The position numbers and the translations under genes were made by a program. Shown piece after piece: positions 21,742 to 53,480 of a DNA stretch of 64,000 nucleotides (its first letter is position 1; each line of letters opens with the position of its first letter). The notes under the pieces are model-generated. The model searched no databases, had not been told where the DNA came from, and was given only the letters and a program-made list of their open reading frames with translations. Location: contig VJWM01000205.1 of NCBI GenBank assembly GCA_010909165.1, positions 62,001 through 126,000 on the forward strand. The letters are read 5' to 3'. This DNA is from Anthoceros angustus. Lineage: Eukaryota > Plantae > Anthocerotophyta.

Positions 21742-22696
21742 ATGGCCAAGCAAAGCAAAAGAAGGATCCCAAGCAAGAATCGAGTGAGCACTTGTGCTCT
21801 CCAAGTTGGCCTTCCAAACTGGCAAGTGAGATTTCCAAGAAACATCAAACAAAAGACAGGGAATTGGAGCATGGCCACGCTGAAAGAAGCCCTGGCTGCG
21901 CTCGATCGCGGCATGAATCTAAGAGAGGTAGAGCAATATTTCGGGATCTCAAGGAGCACCTTGTCGGATTGGAGGAGAGGGAAAGTTGACGCTCAGCAAA
22001 AGGAAAGGCGGTTGTGTTTAGACTTGTGAGGAGGAAAACCAAGTTGCCACCCCTACATCAATGGGGTGGTAGGCCTACGCCATTTGTGAATGGAATTCCT
22101 AGTAGGCATTGGTGCCAAGGGTTCCTTCGATGCCACCCCTACATGAGGAAAAGAAAGGCCACTGGATTAGAGCCATCAAGAGCAAGAGCTATGAATCCCG
22201 ATGTGATTGCTTCTTTTTATGCACAATTGGCTAGCATCTATGATTCAGTTGATGGCCCTTTTTCAGCATGCAGGATATGGAACATGGATGAAACCAACGT
22301 GCAATAAGGGAGGGAGGGAGCACTTATCATTCTAGGACTGCGTGGCTCTCATGACATGGCTGTCCCCACTGCAGATGTGAAACAATCTCTCACATATGTT
22401 GCTTGTGGCAATGCAGCACGCCACAAACTTCCAGGTCTTTACATTTTTAAGGGGTCGAGCCACACCACGTCCAAGACAAACCTCATGAGGTTTGTCTAGG
22501 AGGAAGGAGCTATTGGCTGTAGGCAAGAGAATGCATTCATAACTGCAGATATCTTCCTACAAGGATTACAGCATTTCCACCGACAAGTTGGCAGCACCAT
22601 GAGCCCAACTTGCAAACATGTTTTGTTGTTAGATGGAGCAAAACAACATTTTTCATTGGAGGCTGCAACTTATGCACAAGAAATGGGCTTGATGTC
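21742..22696 (+). pseudogene. Pogo/Fot1-like (DDE_1) DNA transposase, N-terminal part, disrupted
   Basis: WSMATLKEALAALDRGMNLREVEQYFGISRSTLSDW (Psq-type HTH), WCQGFLRCHP (CENP-B-type HTH), IWNMDET (Asp1), LPGLYIFKG, VLLLDGAKQH (Asp2); contains stops and frameshifts. Confidence 0.9.
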
Positions 22697-23214
22697 TGTG
22701 GCGGGACTTTTGCTGATGGCCAGCCGGGCGCGCACAATCCCGTGTCGTTGTAGGAAGAAGTCCGTTCCCAAGGGAATGATAGGCCGTTTACGCGTTTGGT
22801 GATTCTGTCCTTAGCGCTCGTTCGGTCTCACACACATACTCCTAACTACTCTGGCGTTCACCGTCTGATGGCCAAGCGTTTAGGACCCGTTCGCGTCCGT
22901 ATCGTTCACATACATCCTTCGCATCCGGTCCTTTCCTCTCTCTCACGCTACACTCTTGATCTTAGAAAAGGCCTTGATTCTGTGATCCGGACCTCCTCGT
23001 TCGCGGGCCTCTCGTCCGGGCTCTACCCTCCGGAGTTCCTCCGGCTCAGTCCGTTCGGTGTCGGACGCGGCTCTCGGGGCGAAAACGGATCACGATCACC
23101 CTTCCACACACACACCACAGCGCGTTAAGTCGTCACGGGACCTTGATCAATCTCCCGGGCGCCGTGCACCTTTCGGTGACTCGGGACTCACGTTAGCAAG
23201 AAGACTCACAAAGG

Positions 23215-23300
23215 TGCAAGCGGCATCAACACCAAGAAAGATGCTTTACTAGCCTCGGCCCTCTTATCTGCGCCCAAGGTGGCGTCTTTATTACACCCCT
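23215..23300 (-). promoter_or_regulatory. Conserved putative LTR promoter/poly(A) block
   Basis: GTGTAATAAAGACGCC..CTTGGGCG.AG.ATAAGAGGGCCG..TAGTAAAGCATCTTT..CTTGG is shared between families A and B; family B reads TATAAGA at ~63544. Function is inferred. Confidence 0.55.
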
Positions 23301-23619
23301 ATTACGTGATAGCTCGGTATACCTAATCGCCTACCGGCCTATCCCCTATCTCCTTCCATGGTGTGGGAAGGTCACAGGCCCGCCCGGGTGGTCAATCCCC
23401 GTCTGGCAGTTGTGGTGCACCCAATCGGATGATCCGTGAGGCGGGCCCTCCTCTCCCGGAATCACAGCCGGGTTGGGCTCTGGCGGCAGCGACGCCGTTA
23501 CCACGGCGTCATCCTCCTGGCCCCTCAGGTCGCCCGGTGGGGCCACCACTATCTGCTCCCCTAAGCGTAAGTCGAAGGGGCTCCTCCTTCTTGCCGCGGT
23601 CCTCGAGGTCTGTCTCGAC

Positions 23620-23795
23620 TCCGAACTTGAGTCCGGCTTATTCACAGGTCCGGACTTGAGGTCCGGACTTGAGGTCCGGACCTCGGGGTCCGGACTTGTC
23701 CGGGGGACTTGAGTCCGGACTTATTGTCCGGACTTGAGTCCGGACTTATTCAGTCCGGACTTGGTCGGCCTCCCTGAGTCCGGACAAAGTCGGAC
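23620..23795. repeat. Sub-repeat array inside the family A LTR built on the palindrome AGTCCGGACT (also ~35085-35250, ~47480-47715, ~50060-50235)
   Basis: Repeated GAG(G)TCCGGACTT units with variable short spacers; unit number differs between LTR copies. Confidence 0.9.
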
Positions 23796-23899
23796 TCCAC
23801 CGGGTTTCCTCCCTCACGGGACTCCTCCGTGGCTCTCCTCGAAGTCCTCCTCCCGATCGCGTGACTCGCCGTTGGCCTCCTTCCATGGTGAGGTGCGGG

Positions 23900-26383
23900 G
23901 TGCTTACCTCGATCGCATCCCGCTCCTCGTTCGCTCCTCCATTGCTCCTCTCCGCGCTCCGTCATCTCAAGCAGGGGCCACTAGGGTCCCTGTCTTGTCC
24001 CTTCATCTCCTTGAGCCTTCCGGTCCGTCCGTTTGTGACGTCGAGGCTTCTGCCTTGAGCTCGGCGTGGTAATAGGCAAAGTCAGATCGACTTGTTGAAT
24101 TGCCTCTTCCACGTGTGCGGGCACCGATACTCCCTCCGCCATAAGTGTTAGGTGGCGTCTTTGCCCGGCTTGTTGGGCCACCTCTCTGCCCAGTTGGTGG
24201 GCAGGTACATCGCGAGGCTACGGCCTCGGTCACCTCCTGTGCAGTGCTCCTGCTCGGCTCCGTCGTTTCCTCTCCATTGACTTACCGCCATAGCGGCGTT
24301 CCCTTTCTTTGGACGGCGGCTTCTTTTCTTCCGGTGCTCGCTCCTCCGTTCATTACGGCCTTTAGCTCCGGCTCCTCTCCGGTGAGATACCTCCGTCCAG
24401 GCTCGGACTTCCTCCGGCTCATACAGCACAGCAGCGTCCAACTCCTTGGATAGTCGCGATTTTCCTCCGTCTTGACGGGCGGGCTGCTCTATTCGTGCTC
24501 AGTCGTGGATTCTCTCGTTGAGAATCACTGCTCAAGCGCATCTTGGGTTGTAGCTCAGCGTGTCCTAGTCCTCCATCTGCGCCTCCTCTACTTCCCTGGT
24601 GTACTCGGAGATCTCCTATCTCCCAGTCTTGGCCTCCATCTCCTCCCTGGCCTTGCTCCATAGCCTTTGTCACGGCCTTGAGTTAGCCTCGGTACTGTGA
24701 CTCTCTCCGGTTCGATCACGTCTGTAGTGATCCGGTCGCTCTTTTGCGACTTGCTCCTTCGCCGCCTTTTGGGCCTCGCCCACTTGGCCTCTGGCCGCGC
24801 CTCGCCCGGTCCCAGCTCTCTGCGCGTGCGGGCCTCTTAGCCTCTGCTGCGCTTCCCTCTTTTGCAAAGGTCCTCCGCGCGCTTGGGCCTCTGAGCTTGC
24901 TTGATTCGCCTGGTGAAGAACCTTAACCCGATCTGTGAACCGCGGGCCTCGCGCTCCGCCGGCGTTTCCCTTCCTCGATCCGGCGAGGGACTCCGCCTTT
25001 CCTTTGCCCCTCGGCCGCCTTCACTTGCTCTTGGGTTCCACCATCCTCCTCCGGGTGGCCTCCACTTCCACAGGTCTTCTCCTGTACCACGAGACCCCAA
25101 AGCATTCCGTCCATGGCGGTAGCAGGACTCGCCGTGTTTCTTCCACGGCCACGTGTGAGGCCCCACAAAGTCCGTAGTGGGAGCCGGCATTTCTCGTCCG
25201 CCAAGGACCTCCATACCCGATCGGTCGGTGGGTTCTCGGACCTAATCGGGACCCTCGGTCACAGTGGTGGTCGAGTCTCACCCTCTTGGCCCTCTTGGCC
25301 TCTAACTCCTTTGTGCCCTCTTTCTCACAGGGCTCGGAGGAGGTGAGGGGTCGGGAGCAAGCTCTTTTGCCCCTTCACAGCCGGGGCAGGACGGCTCGGG
25401 GTGTGCGCGTGACCTCCACTCCTTGGGCCACGTCCTTCTGCCCTCCTTACGCCTCTTGACCTCTTGCCACTCCGTGGGCGGGGTAATGCACCTTCGAGGT
25501 CTTTGCGTTGGTAAGCGGCACCGTCTTCCGCCTCTTGGCTCCCCGGGTTCGTCGGGGCTCGGCCGTCGTGGTTGTTATTGTGCCGGTGCGGAGGCCAGCG
25601 CCCTCGGCGCCTCCCTCTGTGCGGCTCGGAGGGCACCAAAAGGAGGAAGGGGAATCCTCCCAAACTTCACAGGTGGTGAGGGGTTCGCTCAGACGTGAGT
25701 CAGGAATCCTCGATCGTCCTCCTCCGAGTCGCTTGGTCTTGAAGGGCGACCCCCCCACCTCAGGCGCCCTTGCACGCTCTACTTGGCGGGGCCTCCGGCC
25801 CCCGGGCGCTCAAGCTCTCCTCCTTGAGCTCGAAATGTCCCCATACATGAATCGGTGTGGTCGGCCGATGAGGCTTCTCGCTCCTTAGCTTGCGTGCCTC
25901 CCACTGGCAGGCGAAGATAATCCTTCCCCGGTCGCTCTCTTCCCATTGGGCGCATGCGAGAATACCAGCAGTTATCACCAAGGTGATCCACCTTGGTGGC
26001 GAGTTCAATGGACAATGATCCGGGCTACCGCCCTTACTCATCCCGGATCGGATATCAACCATCCGTTGGTTGTCGCTGCGTTCGAGCCTCGGCGCGCGGT
26101 GGGCCCTATCTTCCCCGCCTTAAGGGGCTCGGCACCACGCCCCTTCTTCCTCCTTGGGCGGTTGTAGGCCATCCTCGGGACCTCAAGGTCCGCCGCCTCG
26201 GGTCCTCCGGAGGTTCTTGGATCGGACCTCCTTGTTGATCGGTCGACCATTTGGAACGTCCGGATGCCACTCTGCACCAATTCCCACACTTCCTCCGGCC
26301 GGGCCGAAGTCCGGATAGCGCGGGTCACAATGTTGCGCTCCACGGTCCATGGCTCCCAGTTTCCGTCGGCTTTTGGGTGCCAT
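23900..26383 (-). CDS. LTR-encoded extra ORF of family A (unknown function; frameshifted in every copy; 3' end approximate). Other starts at 38588, 40099 and 52847
   Basis: ATG in a strong plant context (AAAGCAATGGCA); consensus MAPK.PTEVWEPW.VERNIVT.RYPDFGP..INKEVRSKNLREDPRRWTLEV.RMAYN.P..NGWLISD..RVRAVARIIV, followed by basic and charged low-complexity segments. Conserved in family B. Confidence 0.7.
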
Positions 26384-26998
26384 TGCTTTCTCCTCCTCTT
26401 GTTCTTTGTGCTGCTGGCGTCGGGCACGATGTTCCTCCTTCGCGCGTTGTTGCTCCAACCTTGATGCGCCCGCTCTGGCGGCCCAAAAGGCGCGCCCGAG
26501 GATTGCGGGCGCAAGGCTGTGAGGATTGCGGAGGCTGCGGAAAATGACCTCCCTCCTTGGCGCTTGTGGAAATGGCTGGGCGGAAGGCGCCTCTTGTCTG
26601 CGCGAGTGCATGGCTTACTCGACCCTCGCCACTTACTGCGGCCTTACGCCGCCGGGCGCGTGAATACTGCCTGCGGCCTCGGCAGGTTACGGTCACCTCA
26701 CATGCCCGACCTCCACTCGGGGCCGTCCGTGGCGCCGCCTCGTCATCCTCACGCCTCGCTCCTAGGTTACTTTCCTGGCGTACTTATCCTGACACAGGTG
26801 GGTTCGGACTTATCCGTTACTCGGCGTAGTCCGGAGCTTGCCATAGTGTGCCGGGGTCCGTTGTTCACTCCAGTCGGAGTATACTCGAGCCTCGTCCGCG
26901 CTACCCCAATTTATTCCTCCTTTTCCGCCTTATTTATCCTTCAATCCTAAAAACAGAAACCCTACTTATTTCTTAACTCCCGAAGTGCATAGCCCACA

Positions 26999-27011
26999 TA
27001 CTCCCCTTCTC
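26999..27011 (-). other. Polypurine tract (further copies at 28314-28326 and from 40722)
   Basis: Minus strand GAGAAGGGGAGTA directly abuts the LTR start TGTGGGCT. Confidence 0.85.
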
Positions 27012-30000
27012 ATCATTGGCGTCTCGCCAACACTAAGCATACTTCTTCACCCGCCACCCGTTTACCAGTGGGCGACTCTCCATCTAGGCGTGGGCCGGAC
27101 CCGTTGTCATATACTTGCACCACTTAGTGCGGACCCATCCATCTCGGTGAAGTTTGCACGGAAAATGCATGTGGCGACTATCATAAAGGAGGCGGGTCCC
27201 CTTCCTTTACATACTCGATTCCGATCGGCGATCGTGCCAAATCTTTTGGTTTTGCACCATGCATCTTGGTGAGCTTCTTCCACATCCTCTGTCTTTGCAC
27301 AAACCCCAAGAGTCGCTCGGTGGCTTTCCTCTTCATCGGTCTCCTTCCATCATTACTCGAAAAGTGGGCACTTCAAACTCTCGGCATTACGGAGAGTGTG
27401 TGGGTCAAGTAAGGGTCCGTTGTGTGGTCACCTTCTCTGCTGTCCGGGCATACGGTCTGCGGATGGCGACTTAGTATCCATCATGGGCGTAGTTCCTGTG
27501 AGTTTATTCGAGGATCCTGCGGATGAGCCCATTTGTCTTCTCTGTCGACCCATTGGCCTTAGGATTGTAGGGTGCCGTCTTGCGATGATTGATGCGAAAT
27601 ACTCCGTCATGGCGGCCACCACATCATTAAGGAAATGGGTTCCCCTATCACTTACCAAGCTGCGGACATCCGTGCGGGTTATGATGTTCTCGTGCGAATT
27701 TGGCCACGGTATTTGCGAGTCCGTTCTTGTACCGCCTCTACCCACAGTGCGGTGATGGCCACCGGGATGTATCTCCTTTGTGTGTGTCTTGTCGTGGGTG
27801 TATGGGTCCAACAAAGTCAATACCCACTTTTGAAGGTGCGGTGCCAATATCGGTACTAGCGGCCCTTTGTGTCGTCGGGGTTGGCTTTCCGATCCGACAA
27901 GCATCACACTTCTTCCTAAGCGGTGGGTGTCCCCATACATTGTTGGCCACCGATCCGCTTCAAAATCTTTTGGTGGTGACTGTCTTGCGTAGTGTCCTCC
28001 CCAATCCTTCGTGCATTCCCACAGCGGCTCCTCTCTGCGGTTGCAAGTACCTTCGTTCTACTCGTCAGGCCCTAATTTGAACACACACCGTTGTACATTA
28101 CGAAGGGTCGAGCATAGTGCACGAATGCCTCCCTCATCCGAGTGATTTTGGAAGCTCCATTCCCAGTACCGCTCTATTTCTTCGTGGGTCGGACGGCGGA
28201 CCCTCCCTTCTCCGCGCTACCCCAATTTATTCCTCCTTTTCCGCCTTATTTATCCTTCAATCCTAAAAAAGCGAAACCCTACTTATTTCTTAACTCCCGA
28301 GTGCATAGCCACATACTCCCCTTCTCATCTGTTGGCGTCTCGCCAACACTAAGCATACTTCTTCACCACCCGTTTCGAGTGGGCAGACTCTCCATCTATC
28401 GTGGTGGGCCGGACCCGTTGTCATATACTTGCACCACTTGATACGGACCCATCCATCTCGGTGAAGTTTGCACGGAAAATGCATGTGGCGACTATCATAA
28501 AGGAGGCGGTCCCCTTCCTTTACATACTCGATTCATGATCGGCGATCGTGCCAAATCTTTTGTTGGTTTTGCACTGCGCATCTTGGTGAGCTTCTTCCAC
28601 ATCCTCTGTCTTTGCACAAACCCCAAGAGTCGCTCGGTGGCTTTCCTCCTCGTCTCCTTCCATCATTACTCGAAAAGTGGGCACTTCAAACTCTCGGCAT
28701 TACGGAGAGTGTCCGTAGGTCAAGTAAGGGGTCCGTTGTGTGGTCACCTTCTCTGTCCGGGCATACAGTGCGGATGGCGACTTGGTATCCCGATCATGGG
28801 CGTAGTTCCTGTGAGTTTATTGATCCTGAGATGAGCCCATTTGTCTTCTCTGTCGACCCATTGGCCTTAGGATTGTAGGGTGCCGTCTTGCGATGATTGA
28901 TGCGAAATACTCCGTCATGGCGGCCACCACATCATTAAGGAAATGGGTTCCCCTATCACTTACCAAGCTGCGGACATCCGTCGGGGTTATGATGTTCTCG
29001 TGCGAATTTGGCCACGGTATTTGCGAGTCCGTTCTTGTCGCCGCCTCTACCCACAGTGCGGTGGTCAGTGCCACGGGATGTATCTCCTTTGTGTGTGTCT
29101 TGTCGTTGTATAGGTCCAACAAAGTCAATACCCACTTTTCGAAGGTGCGGTGCCAATATCGGTACTAGCGGCCCCGTGTCGTCGGGGTTGGCTTTCCGAT
29201 CCGTGACAAGCATCACACTTCTTCCTAAGCGGTGGGTGTCCCCATACATTGTTGGCCACCGATCCGCTTCAAAATCTTTTGGTGGTGACTGCGTAGTGTC
29301 CTCCCCAATCCTTCGTGCATTCCCTAGCTCCTGTCTCTGCGGTTGCAAGTACCTTCGTTCTCCGTCAGGCCCTAATTTGAACACACACCGTTGTACATTA
29401 CGAAGGGTCGAGCATAGTGCACGAATGCCTCCCTCATCCACAGTGATTTTGAGCTCCATTCCCAGTACCGCTCTATTTCTTCGTGGGTCGGACGGCGGAC
29501 CCTCCCTTCTCGCTAAGGCGATTCTCGTAGCTTGGGGTTGTCTGGGCTCCTCGGTTGTACTTTACTGCGGCAACCAATGTCTCCAGGAGCATCTTCACGA
29601 TCTCTCAACACTGCTTTCTGTTTTCAATCGTGAAATCGCATTTTGGTCTTGCCTCCCTTGTCTTGTTTCCACTTGACGTGAACTCCTGCGGCAACAATAT
29701 CCACCTTGCTATCCGTCCGGACAGTCCGCCTTATTCACCGGATGCTTGAAAAAGTGGTCTACATAGAACACAAACTCAGGGGTAGTAGGTAGTGTCGAAT
29801 TTCTTGACGCCATACCGATGCTTGGCTTCTAGTATGTTTTCGTTCAGCGTGGGTGACGCCGTCCGTAGTATATCGGGATAATCCGCTTATCGTCATACGC
29901 TCGGCACTACTCCGATAGCGGACATCTACATACACATGAAATTTCTGCTCGGTCCGGTCCTCTTAGGGCGGTGCGCTTACCAAGGTGTTACGTAAATCCA

Positions 30001-33000
30001 AGGCCTCCTCTCGCTCACGTGACCGGTCCAAACCTCCTCCTTCATGATGGTTACATCAACTTAGCCGCCCTCTTGTAAAGTCCTTAATAAACCGGTAGTA
30101 TCCCACCATTCGAAACCTCGGCTCCTTTAGGTTCGTGGTGGAGGCGGATGACCGGACCTTGTCTGGTCCACCTCGATTCCCGACACCCGATGTCCAAGAT
30201 TCCCTCCGTCATTCCAAAGTAGCATTTCTCGGTGTAGGCTCAATCTCCGAGCGCTCAAGCACCTTCTTAGATGCCCAAGGTGTTTGTCCTGCTCCCCATG
30301 CACACAAAATCATCCAGAATATCTCCATGAAGTCCCTCGAAGTCACGGAAGGCGTTGGTCACCATACGCATGAGCGACCACAGGCGCTCGGTCATCCCAA
30401 AGGCACTTCTCTTGTAGGCAAGCGTACCCCACTCCGTAGTGAAGGTCGTCTTGTCCCCATCAAACTCCCTTAGGTGCAATTGGTTATATCCGGAGTAGCC
30501 ATCCGGAAGGAGTAAGTAGTCCGTCCGACCACCTTGTCCAAAATGTCGTCTCTGAATGGCATCGGAAGTGGTCCTTCTCGTTCGTTGAGCTTCCTCAATC
30601 TTGGCATACCGAATTTGTCTGTGTTTCTTGGGAACCACCACAATCGGTAGCGACCCACTCGATTGTGATGGGGAAAATGATGTCTGCCTCCGGTACTTAT
30701 CAAGGACCTCCTTCACCTTGATCGAATACTTGGGGTTGAGCTTGTATTGTCGGATTGGCACGCTCACGGCTTCGATCTTATGCTCTCCCACTTCTTGAAT
30801 GCCCTTCATGTCCGTGACCTTGAAGGCGAACACCTCATAAAACTCCCCAGGTTGCTTTAGTCCTTCCTTGGTCCGGAGGCATGCCTTTCTTAAACTTGAA
30901 TTTGCTGGGACCTCCACTTCTTCCACGTCGTCCGGGTTCACGTCTCCCGTTCGTCTGCCTCATTCCAAACCCCTCGTCCTCCTCTCGGGATCGTCCTCTC
31001 GCATCCCCATTCTCGAAGAGCTCGTCGGAGGTGAATCGTGTTACTCCTTGATGTCCGCTTTTCCTTGGTCCGACTCTTGTTGTCTCCCCTTGTCTTTGGT
31101 CCGACCTCCTCTTCACTTCCTTCCTCCGGCCCGTTGTGGCGTTTACTCAAAACAATCAACCACTTCCGCGCCAAAGGCATCCATGTAGTCCATCTCCTCC
31201 TCGGACCGGATCTTGGCGAAAGTCGCCTCCTCGGAACTATCTTGTTCGTCGGTGGAGTCCTCCGGTATACCCTTCGGTAGTGCTCACGGTTTCCCACAAT
31301 AGGTGTCCTTGCTCCGGTGATAGCAACCCTCCCTTCTCGCCTTAGGGTCCCAGTCCACCGGCTTGAAGTGAATCTCCTTCCTTCCAAAGTGTAGCTTTGC
31401 AGGCCAACCCGGCCATGGCCGCCCAACACCTCATACCCTAATGGTCCGGCGGTTTGATCACAACAAAATCCGGTTTGTAGGGTGCGCTATGGTGGCCAAG
31501 ACTCGGTTAACTCCCCCGGATCTCTTCTTGACATATACGCCATTCTCGAGTCTTCGTTGAGGTTGAAGGATGTGAAGCCCAATTTTCGTGCCGTGGCTTG
31601 GTGATGAGGTTGACTCGGACCCGTGTCCAGGTACATCCTTGATGATACATCCAATCTCCACTTGTACCCTGGCGCCCCAGGTCGTATGGGACACCACCCT
31701 CACTTCCAACATGCTACCCTTCACGGCTTTGGTGCTCACGGTGGGTTTCCCCTAACGGCCCGGACCTCTTGCCGGTATTTGGGTTATCCCTCGGTTGTCG
31801 AAAGGACACAAGGTGCTGATTCATCATCGGTCGCCACATTAAAGGAGGCTTCTACCCCAATCGAGGATCCTGCTGCGTCCTCATCCTCTCCCGGTCACGT
31901 GTTACGGTATTCTCCGGATGCTTGCGCATTTCCTCCTGCAACATCTCGGTCACCTCCGGACTACGTCCGGTGGAAGCTAACGTCGCCGTCGAGGCACCGT
32001 TCCCTTCTCTCACATCTTGGAGAACTTCCTTGGGTAATCCCTCGGAGGCCCCGTCGCCTCCTTCATCGGTCGGATCCTCTGCTGGTATTTCCGTTTGATT
32101 GCCTTCCTCGGCGTCAGTGCGCTTCCTCGATCTTGTTCTTCTTCAATGGCGCCTTTCGTCGCTCCTTCCTTGACTACAGTAGACACCTCAAGATTTCCTC
32201 CTGCAACATCTCGGTCACCTCCCGGACTACGTCCGGTGGAACGTCGCCGTCGCGGAGGCACCGTTCCTTCTCCATCTGTCGGAGAACTTCCTTGGGTAAT
32301 CCCTCCGTGAGCTGCCGTCCAGCCCTCCTTCATCGGATCCTGCTGGTATTTCCGTTTGATTGCCTTCCTCGGCGTCAGTGGCCTTCCTCGATCTTGTTCT
32401 TCTTCAATGGCGCCTTTCTCGTCGCTCCTTCCTTGACTACAGTAGACACCTCAAGATTTCCACTCCCTTCCTTTCGACACCCCCCGTACCTTCTTGTTCT
32501 TTTCCATCTCGCGTACCTGGGAATCTCTTCCCACTCCATAGAGCATCTTGACTTGCCGTACGGTCTTAGGAGGTGGCGTTGGTGGTCGAGTTCTCCGCTT
32601 GGTGTGGCATATCGTCGTCCTTGTGAGGTTGGGACATAGCGTCTTGCTGTCATATGCCCGGCACCTTGCGATCGCCACCACGCTCGAAGTCCCCATTACC
32701 ACCTCGTTGGAGTGCGGACGCGTTGGAGTAATGGCGATTCCGCGGTTCCAGACCACGCGGCCGTCGGAGGATACGAAGGGCTCCCATGCGGTCTTTGCAT
32801 CGGTGGGGCTCGTTGTATTGAGACCTCCGGTTGGCGGATACATGGTTTTGGGATATCGCGGCCCGGAGGGCTTCACATGCGATAGGCCTCTTCCCATTGC
32901 TCCTCGGCCTCCTCCTCGTATTCGTAGTCCACTTGATGCAGGCCTTGAGGCGGTTGGACTTCGAATGGCCGTGTTCTTGGCACGGCACACGAGATGCGTT

Positions 33001-34118
33001 CGCCGTAGTCGGTGTTTTCCGCGCTCTCGGTCCTTAACTGGTTATCGCGGTCCTCTACTCTCTTTATCACTTTTCCGGTCCTCCGCACTGCTACCTCCTT
33101 TGAGGGAGTCGGGTCGGGGAGCTTCTCGGACGGTCTTGGTGTCACCACCTCCTTCTTACCACCTGCTTCTTTTTGGCGGGGCTTTCTTGCTCTTCTTCTT
33201 GCGGGATACTCTTCCTCGCTAGAGACCTCCGTCTCTTCTTGGACTGCTCCTCCTCCGAAGACACCTCGATTGGTCTTCCTCCTCCTCGAAGACTCTTCCT
33301 CCTCAGTCGAACCCCGTTTCTTCTTCTTCTTCTTGCCTCCTTGGATTTCTTTATCCTCGATGTAGCGATTCCTCGTAGTTTTCGGCCGCTCGACCGCCTT
33401 GCCACGTCCTTCTCGGCTAGCGGCGGGGCGTGCACAGCCATGGGTTTGGCTAGACCGGCGCGAACCACCGTCGCTTGCATCGTGGTATGGGTTGGATGCC
33501 GATCCTCGGGGCATAGAACCGCTCGATGTCTGAGCCCGGCTTCTCCTTCTTCCCTCGCTTGATTTTCCAACTTTGATAATACATACCCCTCACGGTGATC
33601 CTCGAAACCGTTCTAAGAAGGCATTTTCAAAGCTTCAAGCGAGGCGGGTGGGGCATTCTCCGGTGGTCGGTACTTTCTCCGATACCATTGGTTGTCCTCG
33701 GAGAACCCCTTGGAAAATTTGGATGAGGCGTCGACTCCCTCTCCGTTGAAGTTGGCTTTGGACATGAAGTCCTCCACAAAGGTCTCGCATCCGCTCCTTC
33801 TTCCCTCCGAATATGGAGTCGCTTGTTTGGTCGAGGTAGGGGCCATGGCTGCGCCATCGATGGGTTAGGCGTGGTCCTACCTTCTTCCGTTGGCGTCCCT
33901 TGTACCCGTACTCGTCTTGGTCCAATTCGACCACGTTCTCCTCCTCGATCGGTGCTCTCTCGTTGGGTTTGGCGTCTCTCCTCTCACGGCTCGGAGAGCG
34001 AGTGACCACGTCCGATCCTCGGCAGTTCACTCTTGACCGTCGCTCGACGCATTCACTTACCTTCTCTTCCTAAGGGCGCGCTGCGGCACCAGACCGATTT
34101 CATTCCCGAACGCCAAAA
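26999..34118 (-). mobile_element. Internal region 1: gag (~33.9-32 kb), aspartic protease (~31.6 kb), RT (~30.9-30.2 kb), RNase H (~29.95-29.7 kb), integrase (~29.4-28.7 kb, partly duplicated at 27.4-28.1 kb); frameshifted
   Basis: ALKNAFLERF (gag), DGYSGYNQ..DKTTFTTEWGT.AY..AFGM..DDF (RT), HVYVD.SAIG and KKFRHYLL (RH), CDAC..GIDFVGP..LVSDRGTHFLND (IN). Confidence 0.9.
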
Positions 34119-37100
34119 TGTGGCGGACTTTCTTGATGGCGGTAGCGCACAATCCGTGTCGTTGTAGGAAGAAGTCCGTTCCCAAAGGGAATGATAGGCC
34201 CGTTTACGCGTTTGGTGATTCTTACCGTCCTTAGCGCTCGTTCGGTCTCAACACACATACTCCTAACTACTCACAGCGTTCCGTCTGAGGCCGGTATGGC
34301 CAAGCGTTTAGGACCCGTTCGCGTCCGTATCGTTCACATACATCCCCCTCGCATCGATCCTTTCCTCTCTCCTCTCACGCTACACTCTTGATCTTAGAAA
34401 AACGGGTTCTGATCCGGACCTCCTCTCGTTCAGCGGGCCTCTCCGTCCGGGCTCTACACCCTCCGGAGTTCCTCCGGCTCACGCGCGTTCGGTCAGTTCG
34501 GTGTCGGACGCGGCTCGGGGCAACACGGGTCACGATCACCCTTCCTGCACACACCACAGCGTTAAGTCCGTCACGGGACCTTGATCAATCTCCCGGGGTG
34601 CCGTGCACCTTTCGGTGACTCGGGACTCACGTTAGCAAGAAGACTCACAAAGGTGCAGAGCGGCATCAACACCAAGAGAAAGATGCTTTACTAGGCGGCC
34701 TCGGCCCTCTTATCTGCGCCCAAGGCGGCGTCTTTATTACACCCCTATTGCGTGATAGCGGTATACCCTAATCGCCGCCTACCCTATTTTCCCCTATCTC
34801 CTTGTGGTGGGAAGGTCCACAGGCCCCGCCGGAATGGGTGGTCAATCCCCGTCACAGCGGTTGTGGTGCACCCAATCGGATGATCCGTGAGGCGGGCCCT
34901 CCTCTCCCGGAATCACAGCCGGGTTGGGCTCTGGCGGTCGACAACGCCGTTACCACGCGTCATCCTCCCTGGCCTCCACAGGTCCTTGCGGTGGGGCCAC
35001 CCTATCTGCTCCCCTAAGCGTAAGTCGAAGGGGCTCCTCCTTCTTGCCGATCCGGTCCTCGAGGTCTGTCTCGACTCACGAACTTGAGTCCTTATTTCAC
35101 AGGTCCGGCTAGGTCCGACCTTGTCTGGGGTCCGGACCTCGGGGTCGGTTGTCCGGACTTGAGTCGGACTTATTGGTCCGGACTTGGTCGGACTTATTCG
35201 GTCCGGACTTGATCCGGCCTCCCTCAGGTCCGGACAAAGTCCGGACTCACGCCCACCGGGTTTCCTCCCTCACGGGACTCCTCCGTGGCTCTCCTCGAAG
35301 TCCTCCTTCCCGATCGCCCGGTGACTCCCGTTGGCCCCTCCTTCCATGGTGAGGTGCGGGGTGCTTACCTCGATCGCATCCGCTCCCTCGTTCGCTCCTC
35401 CTTGCTCCTCTCCGCGCTCCGTCATCTCCAAGCAGGGCCACTAGGGTCCTGTCTTTGTCCCGTGGCCTTCATCTCCTTGAGGCCTTCAGTCCGTCCGTTT
35501 GCGGCCGTCGAGGCTTCTCGCCGGGGGCTCGGTGGTAATAGGCAAAGTCAGATCGACTTGTTGGTGCCTCTTCCACGTGTGCGGGCACCGATACTCCTCC
35601 GCCATAAGTGTTAGGAGGCGTCTTTGCCCGGCTTGTTGGGCCACCTCTCTGCCCAGTTGTGTGGGCCGGGTATCGCGAGGCTACAAGGCGGCCTCGGTCA
35701 CCTCCTGCAGTGCATGTTGCTCACTGCTCCGGCTCCGTCGTTTCCTCCATTGCCCGGCTTACCGCCGCCGCGCGGCGTTCCCTTCCGCCTTTCTCGGTGG
35801 ACGGCGGCTTCTTTTACCTTCCGGTGCTCGCGCTCCTCCGTTCATTACGGCCTTTAGCTCGCGGCTCCTCTCCAGGCGGTCGGATACCTCGTCCGACTCG
35901 GACTTCCTCCGGCTCATACAGCAGCAGCGTCCAACTCCTTGGATAGTCGCCGATTTTCCTCCGTCTTGACGGGCTGGGCACTCTGCGTTCGTGGATTCTC
36001 TCGTTGAGAATCACTGCTGCTCAAGCGCATCTTGGGTTGTAGCTCCAGCGTGTCCTTCATCCTCCATCTGCTGCGCCTCTCCTCTACTTCCCTGTGCTCG
36101 GAGATCTCTATCTCCCAGTCGGCCTCCATCTCCTCCTGGCCTTGCTCCATAGCCTTTGTGCGGCCTTGAGTTAGCCTCGGTCTGTGACTCTCTCCACGGT
36201 TCGATCACGTCTGTAGTGATCCGGTCGCTCTCTTGGCTCCTTCGCCGCCTTTACAGGCCTCGCCCTTGGCCCCCCACTCTGGCCGGGCCTCCGGTCCGAG
36301 CTCTCTGCTTGTGCCGGGCCTCTTAGCCTCTGCTGCGCTTCCCCTCACTTTGCAAGGTCCTCCGCGCTTGGCCTCCCAGGCTTGCTTTTATTCGCCTGGT
36401 GAAGAACCTTAACCAGTCTGTGAACCGCCGGGCCTCGCTCCGCCACCGGCGTTCCCTTCCTCGATCCGGCGAGGACTCCGCCTTTCCTTTGCCCCTCGGC
36501 CGCCTTCACTTGCTCTTGGGTTCCACCATCCTCCTCGGGTGGCCTCCACTTCACAGGTCTTCTCTACCACGAGACCCCAAAGCATTCCGTCCATGGCAGG
36601 ACTTCGCCGTGTTTCTTCCACGGCGAGTGAGGCCCCACAAAGTCCGTAGTGGGAGCCGGCATTTCTCGATCCAGGACCTCCATCCCTTGATCCGGAGTAA
36701 GTCGGGTTCTCGGACCTAATCGGGACCCTCGGGTCACAGTGGTGGTCAGTCTCACCCTCTTTGGCCCTCTTGGCCTCTAACTCCTTTGTGCCCTCTTTCT
36801 CACAGGGCTCGGAGGAGGTGAGGGGTCAGGAGCAAGCTCTTTTGCCCCTTCACAGCCGGGGCAGGACCCGGCTCGAGGTGGGGCTGCGCGGTGACCTCCT
36901 GCTCCTTGGGCCACGTCCTTCTGCCCTCCTTACGCCTCTTGACCTCTTGCCACTCAGGTGGCGGGGTAAGTCACACCTCGAGGTCTTTGCGTTGGTAAGC
37001 GGCACCGTCTTCGCCTCTTGGCTCCCGGGAGTTCGTCGGGGCTCGGCCGTCGTGGTTGTTGGCATTGTTGCAGCCGGTGCGGGCCAGCGCCCTCGGCATC

Positions 37101-40100
37101 GGCTCCCTCCTGTCTGCTCGGAGGGCACCAAAAGGAGGAAGGGAATCGCCTCCCAAACTTCCACAGGTGGTGAGGGGTTCGCTCAGACGTATGGAGTCAG
37201 GAATCCTCGATCGTCCTCCTCCGAGTCCGCTTGGTCTTGAAGGGCGACCCCCACCTCAGGCGCCCTTGCACGCTCTACTTGGCGGGGCCTCCGGCCCCGC
37301 CGGGCGCCCTCAAGCTCTCCTCCTTGAGCTCGAAATGTCCCCATACATGAATCGGTATGGGGTCGCCGATGGCGAGGCTTCTCGCTCCTTAGCTTGCGTG
37401 CCTCTGGCGGGCAGGCGAAGATAATCCTTCCCAGTCCGCTCTCTTCCCATTGGGCGCATGCGAGAATACCAGCGAGTTATCACCAAGGTGATCCACCTTG
37501 GTGGCGAGTTCAATGGACAATGATCCGGGCTACCGCCCTTACTCATCGGCGGATCGGATATCAACCATCCGTTGGTTGTCCATTGCGTTCGAGCCTCGGC
37601 CGCGGCGTGGTGGCCCTATCTTCCTTCGCCCTCCTTACGCCTCTTGACCTCTTGCCACTCCGTGGGCGGGGTAAGTCGGCACCTCGAGGTCTTTGCGTTG
37701 GTAAGCGGCACCGTCTTCCGCCTCTTGGCTCCCCGAGTTCGTCGGGGCTCGGCGGCCGTCGTGGTTGTTGGCATTGTTGCAGCCGGTGCGGGCCAGCGCC
37801 CTCGGCATCGGCTCCCTCTGTGTCGGAGGGCACCAAAAGGAGGAAGGGAATCGCCTCCCAAACTTCCACAGGTGGTGAGGGGTTCGCTCAGACGTATGGA
37901 GTCAGGAATCCTCGATCGTCCTCCTCCGAGTCGCTTGGTCTTGAAGGGCGACCCCCACCTTGCACGCTCTACTTGGCGGGGCCTCCGGCCTCCGGGCGCC
38001 GCTCAAGCTCTCCTCCTTGGGCTCGAAATGTCCCCATACATGAATCGGTATGGGGTCGATGGCGAGGCTTCTCGCTCCTTAGCTTGCGTGCCTCTGGCCC
38101 AGGCAGGCGAAGATAATCCTTCCCAGTCCGCTCTCTTCCCCGGGCGCATGCGAGAATACCAGGTTATCACCAAGGTGATCCACCTTGGTGGCGAGTTCAA
38201 TGGACAATGATCCGGGCTACCGCCCTTACTCGGTATCCGGCGGATCGGATATCAACCATCCGTTGGTTGTCCATTGCGTTCGAGCCTCGGCGCCGCGTGC
38301 TGGCCCTATCTTCCCCGCCGCCTTAAGGGGCTCGGCACCACGCCCCTTCTTCCTCCTTGGGCGGTTGTAGGCCATCCTCGGGACCTCAAGGTCCATCGCC
38401 GCCTCGTCCTCCGGAGGTTCTTGGATCGGACCTCCTTGTTGATCCACTCCCGGACAAACTGGAACACGTCCGGATGCCACTCCCGCAATTCCCACTTCCT
38501 CCGGCCGGGCCGAAGTCCGGATAGCGGGTCACAATGTTGCGCTCCACGGTCCATGGCTCCCAGACTTCCGTCGGCTTTTGGGTGCCATTGCTTTCTCCTC
38601 CTCTTGTTCTTTGTCTGCTGGCGAGTCGGCACGATGTTCCTCCGCCGCGCGTTGTTGCTCCAACCAGATGCGCCGCGCTCTGTGGCGCCCAAAAGATGGC
38701 GCCGAGCCGGATTGCGGGCGCAAGGGGTATGAGGATGCGGAGGCTGCGTGAGACCTCCCTCCTTGGCGCTTGTGGAAATGCTGGCGGAAGGCGCCTCTTC
38801 GTTGTCCATGGCGGTAGCAGGACCGTGTTTCTTCCACGGCCGCAGTGAGGCCCCACAAAGTCCGTAGTGGGGCCGGCATTTCTCGATCCGAGGACCTCCA
38901 TCCCTTGATCCGAGTAAGTCGGGGGGTTCTCGGACCTAATCGGGACCCTCGGGTCACAGTGGTGGTCGAGTCTCACCCTCTTTGGCCCTCTTGGCCTCTA
39001 ACTCCTTTGTGCCCTCTTTCTCACAGGGCTCGGAGGAGGTGAGGGGTCGGGAGCAAGCTCTTTTGCCCCTTCACAGCCGGGGCAGGGGCCGGCTCGAGGT
39101 GGGGCTGCGCGGTGACCTCCTGCTCCTTGGGCCACGTCCTTCTGCCCTCCTTACCTCTTGACCTCTTGCCACTCCGTGGGCGGGGTAAAGGCACCTTCGA
39201 GGTCTTTGCGTTGGTAAGCGGCACCGTCTTCGCCTCTTGCTCCCTGAGTTCGTCGGGGCTCGGCCGTCGGGTCGTTGTTTTGTTGTTACTGCCGGTGCGG
39301 GCCGCCAGCCTCCGGCATCGGCTCCCTCCTGCTGCTCGGAGGGCACCAAAAGGAGGAAGGGAATCGCCTCCCAAACTTCACAGGTGGTGAGGGGTTCGCT
39401 CAGGGCGTATGGAGTCGGAATCCTCGATCGTCCTCCTCCCAGTCCGCTTGGTCTTGAAGGGCGACCCCCACCTCAGGCGCCCTTGCACGCTCTACTTACA
39501 GCGGGGCCTCCGGCCCCGGGCGCCGCTCAAGCTCTCCTCCTTGAGCTCGAAATGTCCCCATACATGAATCGGTATGGGGTCGCCGATGGCGAGGCTTCTC
39601 GCTCCTTAGCTTGCGTGCCTCACGGAGCAGGCGAAGATAATCCTTCCCAGTCCGCTCTCTTCCCCTTGGGCGCATGCGAGAATACCAGCGGTTATCACCA
39701 AGGTGATCCACCTTGGTGGCGAGTTCAATGGACAATGATCCGGGCTACCGCCCTTACTCGTCGGCGGATCGGATATCAACCATCCGTTGGTTGTCCGTTC
39801 GAGCCTCGGCATCGCTGTGGGCGGCCCTATCTTCCCCTTAAGGGGCTCGGCACCACGCCCCTTCTTCCTCCTTGGGCGGTTGTAGGCCATCCTCGGGACC
39901 TCAAGGTCCATCGCCTCGGGTCCTCCGGAGGTTCTTGGATCGGACCTCCTTGTTGATCGGCAGACCCGGTTTGGAACACGTCGGATGCCACTCTGCAATT
40001 TTGCTTCCTCCGGCCGGGCCGAAGTCCGGATAGCGGGTCACAATGTTGCGCTCCACGAGGTCCATGGCTCCCAGACTTCCGTCGGCTTTTGGGTGCCATT

Positions 40101-40721
40101 GCTTTCTCCTCCTTGTTCTTGTAGGCTGTGGCGAGTCGGGCGCGATGTTCCTCGCCGCGCGTTGTTGCTCCCCAGCGGTGCGCGCGCTCTGGGCGCGCCC
40201 AAAAGATAGCGCCGAGCCGGATTGCGGGCGCAAGGCTGTGAGGATTCGGAGGCTGCGCGGCGACCTCCCTCCTTGGCGCGCTTGTGGAAGTAACTGGGCG
40301 GAAGGCGCCTCTTGTCCGTAGCGCGAGTGCATGGCTTACTCGACCCTCGCCCACTCGGCGCCCGCGCGGCCGCGGGCGTGAATACTGCCTGCCTCGGCAA
40401 GGTTCAGTCTGACCTCTGCATGCCCGACCTCCACTCGGGGCCGTCCGTGGCGCCGCCTCGTCTGTCCTCACGCCTCGCTCCTAGGTTACTTTCCAGGCGT
40501 ACTTATCCTATTTTGACACAGGGGTGGGTTCGGACTTATCCGTTACTCGGCGTAGTCGGAGCTTGCCATAGTGGTCTGGGGTCCGTTGTTCACTCCAGTC
40601 GGAGTATACTCGAGCCTCGTCGCGCTACCCCAATTTATTCCTCCTTTTCGCCTTATTTATCCTTCAATCCTAAAAAGCGAAACCCTACTTATTTCTTAAC
40701 TCCCGAAGTGCATAGCCCACA
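34119..40721 (-). repeat. Family A LTR copy 2 (6.6 kb, inflated by internal duplications of the ORF region at ~36.8-40.0 kb)
   Basis: Starts TGTGGCGGAC next to the PBS and ends ..AGCCCACA next to the PPT; the TEVWEPW and NGWLISD blocks recur. Confidence 0.85.
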
Positions 40722-43700
40722 TACTCCCTTCTCATCATTGGCGTCTCGCCAACACTAAGCATGATACTTCTTCACCGCCACCCGTTTGAGTGGGCAGCGA
40801 CTCTCCATCTAGGCGCCGTGGTGGGCCGGACCCGTTGTCATATACTTGCACCACTTGATGCGGACCCATCCATCTCGGTGAAGTTTGCACGGAAAATGCA
40901 TGTGACGACTATCATAAAGGAGGGCGGGTCCCTTCCTTTACATACTCACGATTCGCGATCGGCGATCGTGCCAAATCTTTGGTTTTGCATCTTGTGAGCT
41001 TCTTCCACATCCTCTGTGTCTTTTCAAAAGTCGCTCGGTGGCTTTCCTCTTCTCGGTCTCCTTCCATCATTACTCGAAAAGTGGGCACTTCAAACTCTCG
41101 GCATTACGGGAGTGTCAGTAGGTCAAGTAAGGGTCCGTTGTGTGGTCACCTTCTCTGCTGTCGGGCCCGCAGTCACGGATGGCGACTTGGTATCGATCAT
41201 GGGCGTAGTTCAGAGTTTATTCGAGATCCTGCGGATGAGCCCATTTGTCTTCTCTGTCGACCCATTGGCCTTAGGATTGTAGGGTGCCGTCTTGCGATGA
41301 TTGATGCGAAATACTCCGTCATGGCGGCCACCACATCATTAAGGAAATGGGTTCCCCTATCACTTACCAAGCTGCGGACATCCGTCGGGGTTATGATGTT
41401 CTCGTCGAATTTGGCCACGGTATTTGCGAGTCCGTTCTTGTCGCCGCCTCTACCCACAGTGCGATGGTCGTTGCCACGGGATGTATCTCCTTTGTGTGTG
41501 TCTTGTCGTGGTATATGGGTCCAACAAAGTCAATACCCACTTTTGAAGGTGCGGTGCCAATATCGGTACTAGCGGCCAGTGTCGTCGGGGTTGGCTTTCC
41601 GATCCGTGACAAGCATCACACTTCTTCCTAAGCGGTGGGTGTCCCCATACATTGTTGGCCACGGTATCCGCTTCAAAATCTTTTGGTGGTGACTGTCTTG
41701 CGTAGTGTCCTCCCCAATCCTTCGTGCATTCCCAGCCGCTCCTGTCTCTGCAGTACCTTCGTTCTACTCCGTCGGCCCTAATTTGAACACACACCGTTGT
41801 ACATTACGAAGGGTCGAGCATAGTGCGAATGCCTCCCTCATCCACGAGTCGATTTTGGAAGCTCCATTCCCCAGTACCGCTCTATTTCTTCGTGGGTCGG
41901 ACGGCGGACCCTCCCTTCTCACGCTAAGTGCCGGTTCTCGTAGCTTGGGGTTCGGTCTGGGCTCCTCGGTTGTACTTCTGCGGCAACCAATGTCTCATCC
42001 AGGAGCATCTTCACGATCTCTCAACACCTGCTCTGACGTGGAAATCGCATTTTGGTCTTGCCTCCCTTGTCTTGTTTCCACTTGACGTGAACTCCTGCGG
42101 CAACAATATCCACCTTGCTATCCGTCCGGACAGTCCGTCTTATTCACCGGATGCTTGACGCAAAGTGGTCTACATAGAACACAAACTCCTTTGGGTAGTA
42201 GGTAGTGTCGAATTTCTTGACATATACCATACCCGGTGCTTGGCGCTAGTTGTGTATTTTCGTTCGCGTGGTGGTCGTCCGCGTAGTATCGGGATAATCC
42301 CCCGCTTGTCGCCGGCTCGGCACTACTCCGATAGCAAAGCGGACACATCTACATACACATGAAATTTCTGCTCGATCCGGTCCTCTTAGGCAGTGCGCTT
42401 ACCAAGGTGTTACGTAAATCCGAAGGCCTCCTCTCTCACGTGACGGTCCAAACCTCCTCCTTCCGATGGTTACATCAACTTAGCCGCCCTTAGTCCTTAA
42501 TAAACCGGTAGTATCCCACCATTCCGAAACCTCTCGGCTCCTTTAGGTTCGTTGGAGGCGGATGACCGGACCTTGTCTGGTCCACCTCGATTCAGCGGAC
42601 ACGATGTCGACAAGATTCCCTCCGTCATTCCAAAGTAGCATTTCTCGGGTGTAGGCTCAATTGAGTCTCGGCGCTCAAGCACCTTCTTAGATGTCCCAAG
42701 GTGTTTGTCCTGCTCCCCATGCACACAAAATCATCCGAATATCTCCATGAAGTCCCTCGAAGTCACGGAAGGCGTTGGTCACCATACGCATGAGCGACCA
42801 CAGCGCTCGGTCATCCCAAAGGCACTTCTCTTGTAGGCAAGCGTACCCCACTCCGTAGTGAAGGTCGTCTTGTCCCGGTCAAACTCCCTTAGGTGCAATT
42901 GGTTATATCCGGAGTAGCCATCCGAGGAAGGAGTAAGTAGTCCGTCCACCACCTTGTCCAAAATGTCGTCTCAATGGCATCGGAAGTGGTCCTTCTCCGT
43001 TCGTTGAGCTTCCTCAATCTTGGCATACCGAATTTGTCTGGTGTTTCTTGGGAACCACCACAATCGGTAGCGACCCACTCGGTGATGGGGAAAATGATGT
43101 CTGCCTCCGGTACTTATCAAGGACCTCCTTCACCTTGATCGAATACTTGGGGTTGAGCTTGTATTGTCGGATTCGGTGGCACCGCTCGGCTTCAAATCGA
43201 TCTTATGCTCTCCACTTCTTGAATGCCCTTCATGTCCGTGACCTTGAAGGCGAACACCTCATAAAACTCCCCAGTGCTTTAGTCCTTCCTTGGTCCGGAG
43301 GCATGCCTTTCTTAAACTTGAGAATTTGCTGGCGGACCTCCACTTCTTCCACGTCGTCCGGGTTCACCGTCTCCGTTCCGTGCCTCGCTGCGTCCAAACC
43401 CCTCGTCCTCCTCTCGGGGATCGTCCTCTCGCATCCCCATTCTCTGAGCTCGTCGGAGGTGAATCGTGTTACTCCTTGATGTCCGCTTTTCCTTGGTCCG
43501 ACTCTTGTTGTCTCCCCCTTGTCTTTGGTCAGGCCTCCTCTTCACTTCCTTCCTCCGGCCCGTTGTGGCGTTTACTCAAAACAATCAATCACTTCGCCAA
43601 AGGCATCCCGCGGTAGTCCATCTCCTCCTCGGACGGCGGATCTTGGCGAAAGTCGCCTCCTCGGAACTATCTTGTTCGTCGCGGTGGAGTCCTCCGAGGT

Positions 43701-48800: not shown

Positions 48801-49129
48801 CGCCTCTGCTCCCCTAAGCGTAAGTCGAAGGGGCTCCTCCTCGTCGTTCGCGGGCCTCTCTGAGTCCGGACTTGAGTCCGGACTTGGTCGGCCTCCCTCA
48901 CGGGACCTTGATCTGTGAAGCCGCCTCGCTCGCCACCGGCGTTCCCTTCCTCGATCGGCGGTGCTCTCGTTGGGTTTGGCGTCTCTCCTCTCACGGCTCG
49001 GAGAGCAGGGACCACGTCCGATCCTCTGACGGTTCACTCTTGGCCGTCGCTCGACGCATTCACTTACCTTCTCTTCCTAAGGGCGCACTGCGGCACCACG
49101 GACCGATTTCATTCCCGGCAGCGCCAAAA

Positions 49130-52100: not shown

Positions 52101-53480
52101 AATCGCCTCCCAAACTTCACAGGTGGTGAGGGGTTCGCTCAGGCGTATGGAGTCAGGAATCCTCGATCGTCCTCCTCCGAGTCCGCTTGGTCTTGAAGGG
52201 CGACCCCCACCTCAGGCGCCCTTGCACGCTCTACTTGGCGGGGCCTCCGGCCCTTGGGCGCCCGCTCAAGCTCTCCTCCTTGGGGCTCGAAATGTCCCCA
52301 TACATGAATCGGTGTGGGGTCGATAAGCGAGGCTTCTCGCTCCTTAGCTTGCGTGCCTCTGGCAAGGCGAAGATAATCCTTCCCGGTCGCTCTCTTCCCC
52401 GGCGGGCGCATGCGAGAATACCAGCGAGTTATCACCAAGGTGATCCACCTTGGTGGCGAGTTCAATGGACAATGATCCGGGCTACCGCCCTTACTCGGCC
52501 GGCGGATCGGATATCAACCATCCGTTGGTTGTCGCTGCGTTCGAGCCTCGACGCCGCGGGCGGCCTATCTTCCCGCCGCCTTAAGGGGCTCACCGCCCCT
52601 TCTTCCTCCTTGGGCGGTTGTAGGCCATCCTCGGACCTCAAGGTCCATCGCCTCGGGTCCTCCGGAGGTTCTTGGATCGGACCTCCTTGTTGATCGGCAA
52701 ACTCCGGACGTTTGGAACACGTCAGATGCCACTCTGCACCAATTCCCTGCTTCCTCCGGCCGGGGCCCGAAGTCCGGATAGCGCGGGTCACAATGTTGCG
52801 CTCCACGGTCCATGGCTCCCAGACTTCCGTCGGCTTTTGGGTGCCATTGCTTTCTCCTCCTCTTGTTCTTTGTAGGCTGGCGAGTCCGTGGCACGATGTT
52901 CCTCCTTGGCGTTGTTGCTCCAACCTTGGCGGTGCGCGCTCTAAATGGTGCGCCCAAAAGATAGCGCGAGCGGATTGCGGGCGCAAGGGGTATGAGGATG
53001 CGGAGGCTGCGTGAGACCTCCCTCCTTGGCGCTTGTGGAAAATGCTGGGGAAGGCGCCTCTTCGTTGTACGCGAGTGCATGGCTTACTCGACCCTCGCGC
53101 TTACTGCGGCCTTACGCGCCGCGCGGCCGCGGGCGTGAATACTGCCTGCGGCCTCGCAGGTTACGGTCTACCTCTGCATGCCCGACCTCCACTCGGGGCC
53201 GTCCGTGGCGCCGCCTCGTCATCCTCACGCCTCCGCTCCTAGGTTACTTTCACTGGCGTACTTATCCTATTTTGACTGGAGTGGGTTCGGACTTATCCGT
53301 TACTCGGCGTAGTCAGCTTGCCATAGTGTCGGGTCCGTTGTTCACTCAGTCGGAGTATACTCGGAGCCTCGTCGGCTACCCCAATTTATTCCTCCTTTTC
53401 CGCCTTATTTATCCTTCAATCCTAAAAAAAACAGAAACCCTACTTATTTCTTAACTCCCCAGGGAAGTGCATAGCCCACA
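49130..53480 (-). repeat. Family A LTR copy 4 (5' LTR, 4351 bp)
   Basis: PBS at 49110-49126 on the left and the TSD on the right. Confidence 0.9.

Follow-up and report, generated by a model that had tools for sequence, protein, structure and literature searches.

The family A insertion and its long terminal repeat

The window analysed here is a stretch of 64,000 nucleotides of Anthoceros angustus (assembly GCA_010909165.1, contig VJWM01000205.1, positions 62,001 to 126,000). It contains a Ty3/gypsy insertion on the minus strand at 22697..53480, termed family A, whose 4.3-kb long terminal repeat (LTR) holds the start of an extra open reading frame (ORF) in its unique 3′ region (U3). The insertion was delimited by self-alignment, by a target-site duplication (TSD), ATGTC, at 22692..22696 on the left and 53481..53485 on the right, and by the gene that it splits. 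This gene, the insertion target, encodes a decayed DDE_1 (pogo-like) transposase on the plus strand (22003..22696) and resumes at 53481-53950, so that DDE_1-like sequence is found on both flanks of the TSD. A second LTR family, B, was inserted in the same gene ∼470 bp away and in the opposite orientation. The 30.8-kb insertion is either one element containing assembly duplications or a tandem array of the form LTR-internal-LTR-internal-LTR.

The 3′ LTR (22697..26998, minus strand, 4302 bp as assembled, TGT..ACA) and the 5′ LTR (49130..53480, minus strand, 4351 bp as assembled) align over their full length with 3989 matches, 110 mismatches and 455 gap columns. A middle copy (34119..40721, minus strand) contains two internal duplications which are likely assembly artefacts. 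The 3′ ends of the LTRs (..CCGCCACA) lie at 22697, 34119, 46270 and 49130, and the last three are followed by TTT and a primer-binding site (PBS) beginning TGGCG (34097..34115, minus strand, with other copies at 46248-46266 and 49108-49126). These three noisy PBS copies look like the PBS of a related locus, L005, and may be of the tRNA-Asp type. The use of a tRNA-Asp primer has been described for the Athila lineage (PMC1142308). The 5′ starts of the LTRs, TGTGGG (TGTGGGCTATG), lie at 26998, 40721 and 53480. A polypurine tract (PPT) with a GCGAG(G)ACGC-type motif upstream adjoins the first of these (26999..27030, minus strand) and the same module adjoins the second (40722-40755), the PPT and the LTR start lying ∼40-55 bp behind the integrase stop codon that ends pol. 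In an accurate public sequencing run, X1, the 7 bins reaching to 53487 have summed depths of 573-5398, and the 23 bins after them have 0-29. No second LTR start, i.e. a purine tract followed by TG, was seen between the ORF and the LTR's own 3′ end in copies A1, A4 and A2a. The LTR limits originally predicted from PPT, PBS and TSD were thus confirmed, all three marks having been located and the host gene being split at the repeat ends, and the 4.3-kb repeat is very probably a true LTR.

The gag-pol region (27060..34000, minus strand, with its integrase part duplicated by assembly) has the order gag, protease, reverse transcriptase, RNase H, integrase, as given from protease onwards by collinear tblastn matches of the related sequence P0001. 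The RNase H match ends at 42089 and the integrase match starts at 41816, with the same spacing as in P0001. Neither a chromodomain nor an extra RNase H (aRH) was seen in family A gag-pol, and the Pfam domains of P0001 do not include aRH. A candidate TATA region for the genomic RNA lies at 23261..23292 (minus strand), and family B has TATAAGAG at ∼63545. A T-rich tract ending in AG is present ∼50 bp into the LTR of both families (26940-26960, minus strand, and 53975-54006, plus strand) and might serve as the acceptor site in splicing of a subgenomic RNA.

The quality of the sequence differs along the window. Host reading frames are clean from 1 to 22.7 kb, while 22.7-64 kb consists of repeats. 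Their copies are 83-93% alike, differ by numerous small gaps and jump back at several places in the self-alignment (28212, 32198, 37624, 38804, 46682 and ∼48940). Comparison with X1 gave ∼290 indel places across 12.1 kb of repeat, and the integrase copies show 17-20 breaks per ∼260 codons when compared with a clean relative, so the repeat part must be unpolished long-read sequence. Differences between the family A LTR copies are at the level of error. The X1 depth indicates a high-copy family, and 3115 of 7104 X1 contigs are at least 99% alike. Clean host genes, named by eye from their translations, encode an acyl-CoA ligase-like protein (6347-8487, minus strand), a phage-type organellar RNA polymerase (13234-∼17000, plus strand) and an F-box/kelch protein (18436-19320, minus strand). 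By themselves the host genes point to a land plant, likely a bryophyte, and the errors seem limited to the repeats.

The extra reading frame in U3

The start codon of the extra ORF is at 26383, 615 bp into the LTR, and the conserved N-terminal core occupies 25800..26383 on the minus strand, with indels breaking every copy. A likely continuation (23930..25799, minus strand) comprises a linker and a charged, probably coiled-coil, part, and coding-like blocks conserved between families A and B extend to ∼23950. Family B consists of 3-4 overlapping noisy copies of LTR sequence (53945..63852, plus strand) which begin in host DNA. It aligns from the first LTR base of family A, at ∼53945-53952 and abutting host DNA, and this junction is spanned by one X1 contig with no extra letters. 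Family B has an ATG at 54687 (and another at 56447), and the start contexts and N-termini at 26383 (copy A1) and 54687 (copy B1) are similar. The distance between two shared anchors is 751-782 bp in 4 copies of A and 254-270 bp in 3 copies of B. Thus ∼510 bp, including the last third of the core, is absent from all 3 B copies and the family B insertion is probably defective because this part of the ORF is missing.

Selection was tested in frames taken from the ATG of B1 itself and from the longest open stretch of B1. When B1 was compared with each of 4 copies of A, the ORF frame was free of stop codons and gave a ratio of non-synonymous to synonymous differences per site (pN/pS) of 0.08-0.14 (24-28 gap-free codons). 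A second ORF piece, also stop-free, gave 0.29-0.42 (47-55 codons). The other frames in the same comparisons gave 0.64-4.6 and contained stops. The synonymous bias relative to B1 had Fisher p values of 9e-7 for A1 and 7e-8 for A4. In a best-of-three-frames shuffle test, 12 of 1000 shuffles reached the value for the N-terminal runs and 23 of 1000 that for all ORF runs. The same test was not significant for the middle (153/1000) and C-terminal (293/1000) parts of the ORF, nor for the sequence after it (745/1000). Individual blocks there have a coding appearance all the same, e.g. one at ∼23973 with 7 synonymous and 3 non-synonymous changes. Two tests for a period of three in the A/B mismatches gave no signal in any region of the ORF; they included no positive control, and their power is reduced by first-position changes in Arg and Leu codons and by alignment noise.

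There is therefore purifying selection on the first ∼140 codons of the extra ORF. The original prediction that synonymous bias reflects selection on the protein stands for this part, the bias not being significant in the middle and C-terminal parts. Its placement of the ORF wholly inside the LTR holds for the start codon, the full extent of the ORF and its stop codon not having been located. Family B was said to keep the same ORF and a strong start, of which the ATG in its similar context is retained and the ∼510 bp is not. The further claim, that every solo LTR would carry a complete gene, is not supported by the window, where no continuous ORF was found in any copy of this noisy repeat sequence. 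A second run, X2, perhaps of RNA, contributed 4 records, in short pieces, and no evidence of expression either way. Nevertheless, a continuous frame of ∼800 codons, a length that is an estimate, is likely to exist in accurate family A copies.

Relatives and the layout behind pol

An integrase scan of metagenomes gave 63 related loci, and the sequence behind pol was examined in 26 of them. Four of the 63 (L002, L003, L005 and L030) have mutually homologous ORFs behind pol, and six more related proteins of 492-704 aa were found, 3 of which begin MAP(K/R) as does family A. A profile built from 9 of the relatives' cores picked out only one of 2293 stop-free stretches in the window at E <0.4, namely 54866..55195 (plus strand, E 1.1e-4), which is the cleanest stop-free piece of the ORF core. 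Alignment of the window ORF with the relatives using hhalign was weak, and with frameshift-tolerant scoring 1 of 8 window copies rose above noise, the others being too noisy. The L006 ORF is more distant (hhalign of A6 against L006, E 0.002, probability 14%). The extra ORF is likely kin to the 630-742-aa ORFs of the relatives, and the resemblance to retroelement-derived proteins of bryophytes suggested earlier is supported in the form of a kinship with extra ORFs of related elements from non-seed plants.

No Pfam match was found for the LTR pieces among 27 window proteins, and neither the window pieces nor the 9 aligned relatives matched PF03078 or PF20167 at the curated cut-off. Below that threshold PF20167 was hit by L006 (E 2.5e-4) and L017 (E 2.9e-3), and in the Atlas the relatives' likeness to Transposase_32/ATHILA was 23 of 30 at 0.91. 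Searches with the noisy window pieces gave no match in the Atlas, viral contigs or prokaryote genomes, and none of 2232 candidates in a word-index search. A profile search of 1.84 billion representatives returned 2 matches, which were rejected as long, bacterial-looking repeat proteins.

The integrase tree has 23 rows, the distant L036, L040 and L044 being left out, and was rooted on Athila-like and conifer rows. The window groups with L001, P0001, L002, L003, L004, L005 and L030 (90.5/84) with the internal order unresolved, and the window clade (99.4/100) is separate from the Athila-like rows of seed plants on which the tree was rooted. In another, more distant group of Ty3/gypsy elements (L040, L041, L042, L044 and L048) there are other, mutually related ORFs behind pol with no Pfam match.

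Two layouts are found among these relatives. L005 is a complete circular unit (1-10852) of conventional form, with a purine tract lacking TG, a 742-aa ORF, a PPT and TGT at 6575, an LTR of ∼990 bp and a PBS. Its first module behind pol is common to L030 and L004. In L001, L002 and L003 the module directly behind pol is instead the one which precedes the LTR in L005, and it is followed by TG as in the window. The ORF then starts after 570 bp in L002 and 500 bp in L003, where TATATAA is found at -167, and relatives of this layout have a clean ORF of 630 aa. The LTR limits of L002 and L003 are inferred because neither contig holds a second LTR; L002 has a further purine tract and TGT at 5361 without the upstream motif. 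The three elements sharing the layout form no supported clade in the integrase tree (8.5/29, 87.5/67). In L006 (3324-5719) a 554-aa Transposase_32-like ORF lies between two PPT-like modules that both have TGT behind them, an arrangement that could be an intermediate state; a single-sequence structure model of this ORF was unusable (predicted local distance difference test, pLDDT, 34.6). Several loci have a short inverted repeat (TGTG..CACA type) at the opening of the LTR or after pol (L002 2526-2547, and just behind pol in L003, L010, L011 and L022).

By the established mechanics of reverse transcription, an internal gene becomes a U3 gene if only the site of plus-strand priming is shifted with respect to the ORF. 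Takeover by an extra upstream PPT, of the kind known in Athila4 and Calypso (PMC2829016), is not favoured, since the pol-adjacent module in the window, L001, L002 and L003 resembles the LTR-proximal module of L005 and not the first module of L004, L005 and L030. The type of module suggests instead a change of order between the gene and the LTR-proximal module.

Predicted fold, candidate target motif and rival explanations

The best structural match to a model of a relative's core was DNA-bound VANC21 (PDB 9lnk), over most of the domain and at 15% identity. A Foldseek search of PDB and BFVD, with a second look, gave no match; there was no Pfam match to DUF1985, PF10536 or PF04195 and no PDB sequence match to VANC21. 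On this modelling the extra ORF probably encodes a protein with a VANC or plant mobile domain (PMD) type of fold. VANC is reported to resemble MAIN/PMD, and a pentamer is predicted for VANC as well as for the Athila domain (PMC13547354, bioRxiv 2024.09.27.615353).

Tandem repeats on the palindrome GTCCGGAC (23646..23785) hold 9 of the 15 TCCGGA hexamers in the LTR. In an unbiased scan TCCGGA was the top hexamer of both L002 and L003 and took fourth place in A1, while the 17 remaining loci of the scan had 0-5 occurrences each, with none in L005. In L002 and L003 it is spread across coding DNA and is more frequent in pol than in synonymous shuffles. The CpG observed/expected ratio is 0.8-1.1 in these elements against 0.12 in L005 pol. 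Other loci have favoured hexamers of their own. AGCGCT is the top hexamer of L005 (14 against 1.7), mostly outside pol, and CCAATT is enriched throughout L006 (44 against 13.5). The Athila-like L017, L020 and L021 have strongly enriched hexamers, also within pol (TTGACC in L017, 69 against 21, and in pol 22 against 4.0 in synonymous shuffles; GGTCGA in L020).

Family A is a Ty3/gypsy element of an Athila-like clade, and it is not classed as Athila, Phygy or VANC because a defining feature fails for each. As in Athila, an OTA element, no aRH or chromodomain was seen, a TGGCG-type PBS lies a few bases behind the LTR, a sense extra ORF follows pol, and the relatives' ORFs resemble Transposase_32/ATHILA (ATHILA ORF-1 PF03078, PF20167). 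Unlike in Athila, this ORF is inside the LTR and not between the 3′ LTR and pol. The Athila extra ORF of OTA Ty3/gypsy elements is described as 3′ and sense (PMC6317226, PMC7264820, PMC11728184), Transposase_32 as related to Athila ORF1 (PMC11728184), extra ORFs as placed in the internal region (PMC7264820), and those of Retand as antisense and internal (PMC11963269). Phygy is likewise a non-chromovirus of a non-seed plant whose polyprotein fills nearly the whole internal region, but it is short, has no extra ORF and targets NCGN (PMC6317226), whereas family A has 4.3-kb LTRs and the 5-bp TSD ATGTC. Coding sequence also enters the 3′ LTR in CRM group A, where pol extends into the LTR (PMC3059260); there the end of the polyprotein runs in, whereas here a gene with its own ATG begins ∼600 bp inside. 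VANC21 is an anti-silencing protein of VANDAL/MuDR DNA transposons, a kind of protein that binds an element-specific motif and lowers DNA methylation. The sites bound by VANC are short motifs within tandem repeats (PMC5735166). Here the element is an LTR retrotransposon with no DUF1985 match, and the motif of L002 and L003 also fills coding DNA, unlike the VANC21 motif, which lies in non-coding sequence. Plant mobile domain proteins (MAIN/MAIL1, and PMD-A from retrotransposons) are structural kin of VANC; PMD occurs in Ogre and Transposase_28 in Retand as extra ORFs of OTA elements (PMC6317226), and those ORFs are internal and their domains, PF10536 and PF04195, are not matched here. In retroviruses, mouse mammary tumour virus sag and the overlap of human immunodeficiency virus nef are accessory coding sequences in U3 and are copied to both ends. 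No kinship of sequence or fold with these is expected and the family A ORF is much longer. For the extra ORF the evidence thus favours a Transposase_32/ATHILA-like protein of VANC fold over an accessory protein of the retroviral type.

We propose that the LTR, by beginning right behind the integrase stop, places the extra gene in U3 of both LTRs. The gene may have a short transcript of its own, driven by a promoter within the LTR's first 600 bp; the stretch before the start codon is free of ATG in all 4 leaders with a located ATG, with a clear TATA only in L003. The VANC-fold core is predicted to bind the TCCGGA-core repeats of its own element and, with oligomerisation via the coiled coil, would relieve silencing locally at motif-bearing copies. 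Because U3 is duplicated to both ends at reverse transcription, each new copy would receive two doses of the gene, and a solo LTR would in every case retain it along with its binding sites. Chances seem to us evenly divided on whether the U3 gene encodes a VANC-like DNA-binding protein that recognises its own TCCGGA repeats and counters silencing, and motif binding together with anti-silencing by the extra ORF protein, as a prediction, falls just short of that. More tentatively still, this non-seed-plant Athila-like clade may carry a VANC-type anti-silencing gene in U3 beside its own binding repeats, each copy or solo LTR being a cassette acting in trans on the family, and Athila/Transposase_32 ‘env-like’ ORFs may generally be VANC-fold anti-silencing proteins and not envelope relics. 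Weighing against TCCGGA as the target, it is not enriched in the window's internal region, and synonymous shuffles are likewise exceeded by the top hexamers of elements in which no extra ORF is visible. Weighing against the 4.3-kb LTR, X1 depth in LTR and internal bins is about 1:1 by median (1270 and 1276) and 1.5:1 by mean (1897 and 1230) and not 2:1, although these sums do not give copy number.

It is possible, though we think it unlikely, that the gene is real and in U3 and has another job. Its protein might activate transcription in the manner of retroviral Tat/Tas/Tax, assist nuclear import or the targeting of integration, or act as a particle chaperone, and TCCGGA would then be a site for a host factor or a signal for RNA packaging. 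A shared fold proves no function, TCCGGA is palindromic, the PMD/MAIN kin act in gene silencing and against Polycomb (PMC13547354, bioRxiv 2024.09.27.615353) and regulatory roles have been proposed for extra ORFs generally (PMC7264820, PMC11963269). However, the structural match is to VANC21 in its DNA-bound form over most of the domain, and the motif lies in tandem repeats and is spread through L002 and L003 coding DNA with little CpG loss.

Less probable again is that the ORF is ancestral and now a decaying passenger of the LTR, the synonymous bias between A and B being old. The ∼510 bp missing from B, the lack of significant selection in the middle and C-terminal parts, the null periodicity tests and the absence of an intact window copy would all fit such decay. 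Yet integrase, which must be functional in so abundant a family, has the same density of breaks, ∼7 per 100 codons, so the breaks in the ORF are explained by read errors; moreover, the clean 630-aa ORF in relatives of the same layout and the high X1 depth with its many near-identical contigs argue against decay. Finally, that the 4.3-kb repeat is not a working LTR, the true LTR being the last ∼1 kb with the ORF conventionally before it and the repeat arising from tandem copies, split terminal repeats or mis-assembly, would suit the many assembly jumps back, the depth ratio and the conventional L005, but is very improbable given the TSD and split host gene at the long-LTR ends, the identical start base of B where it meets host DNA, a junction that an accurate contig spans, the depth drop at 53480, the lack of a PPT and TG near 23600-23900 and the LTR-proximal type of the module before 26998.

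Neither a whole extra gene inside a plant LTR nor a VANC fold for Athila-type ORFs was found in the literature searched as listings and openings of abstracts, which included few subscription journals and no supplements (additional files 1, 4 and 5 of REXdb might be relevant). What is new is a U3-encoded extra gene, probably VANC-like in action. The function of the Athila-type extra ORF is an open question (PMC7264820) and an epigenetic role of Athila ORFs is to be investigated (PMC12844716); a VANC-like fold with a candidate target word gives a directly testable hypothesis. The layout described here may escape annotation tools that seek extra ORFs near pol only, or that return short LTRs. The nature of a solo LTR changes when U3 holds a whole gene and, if the proposal is true, sequence-specific anti-silencing would not be confined to the DNA transposons of eudicots.

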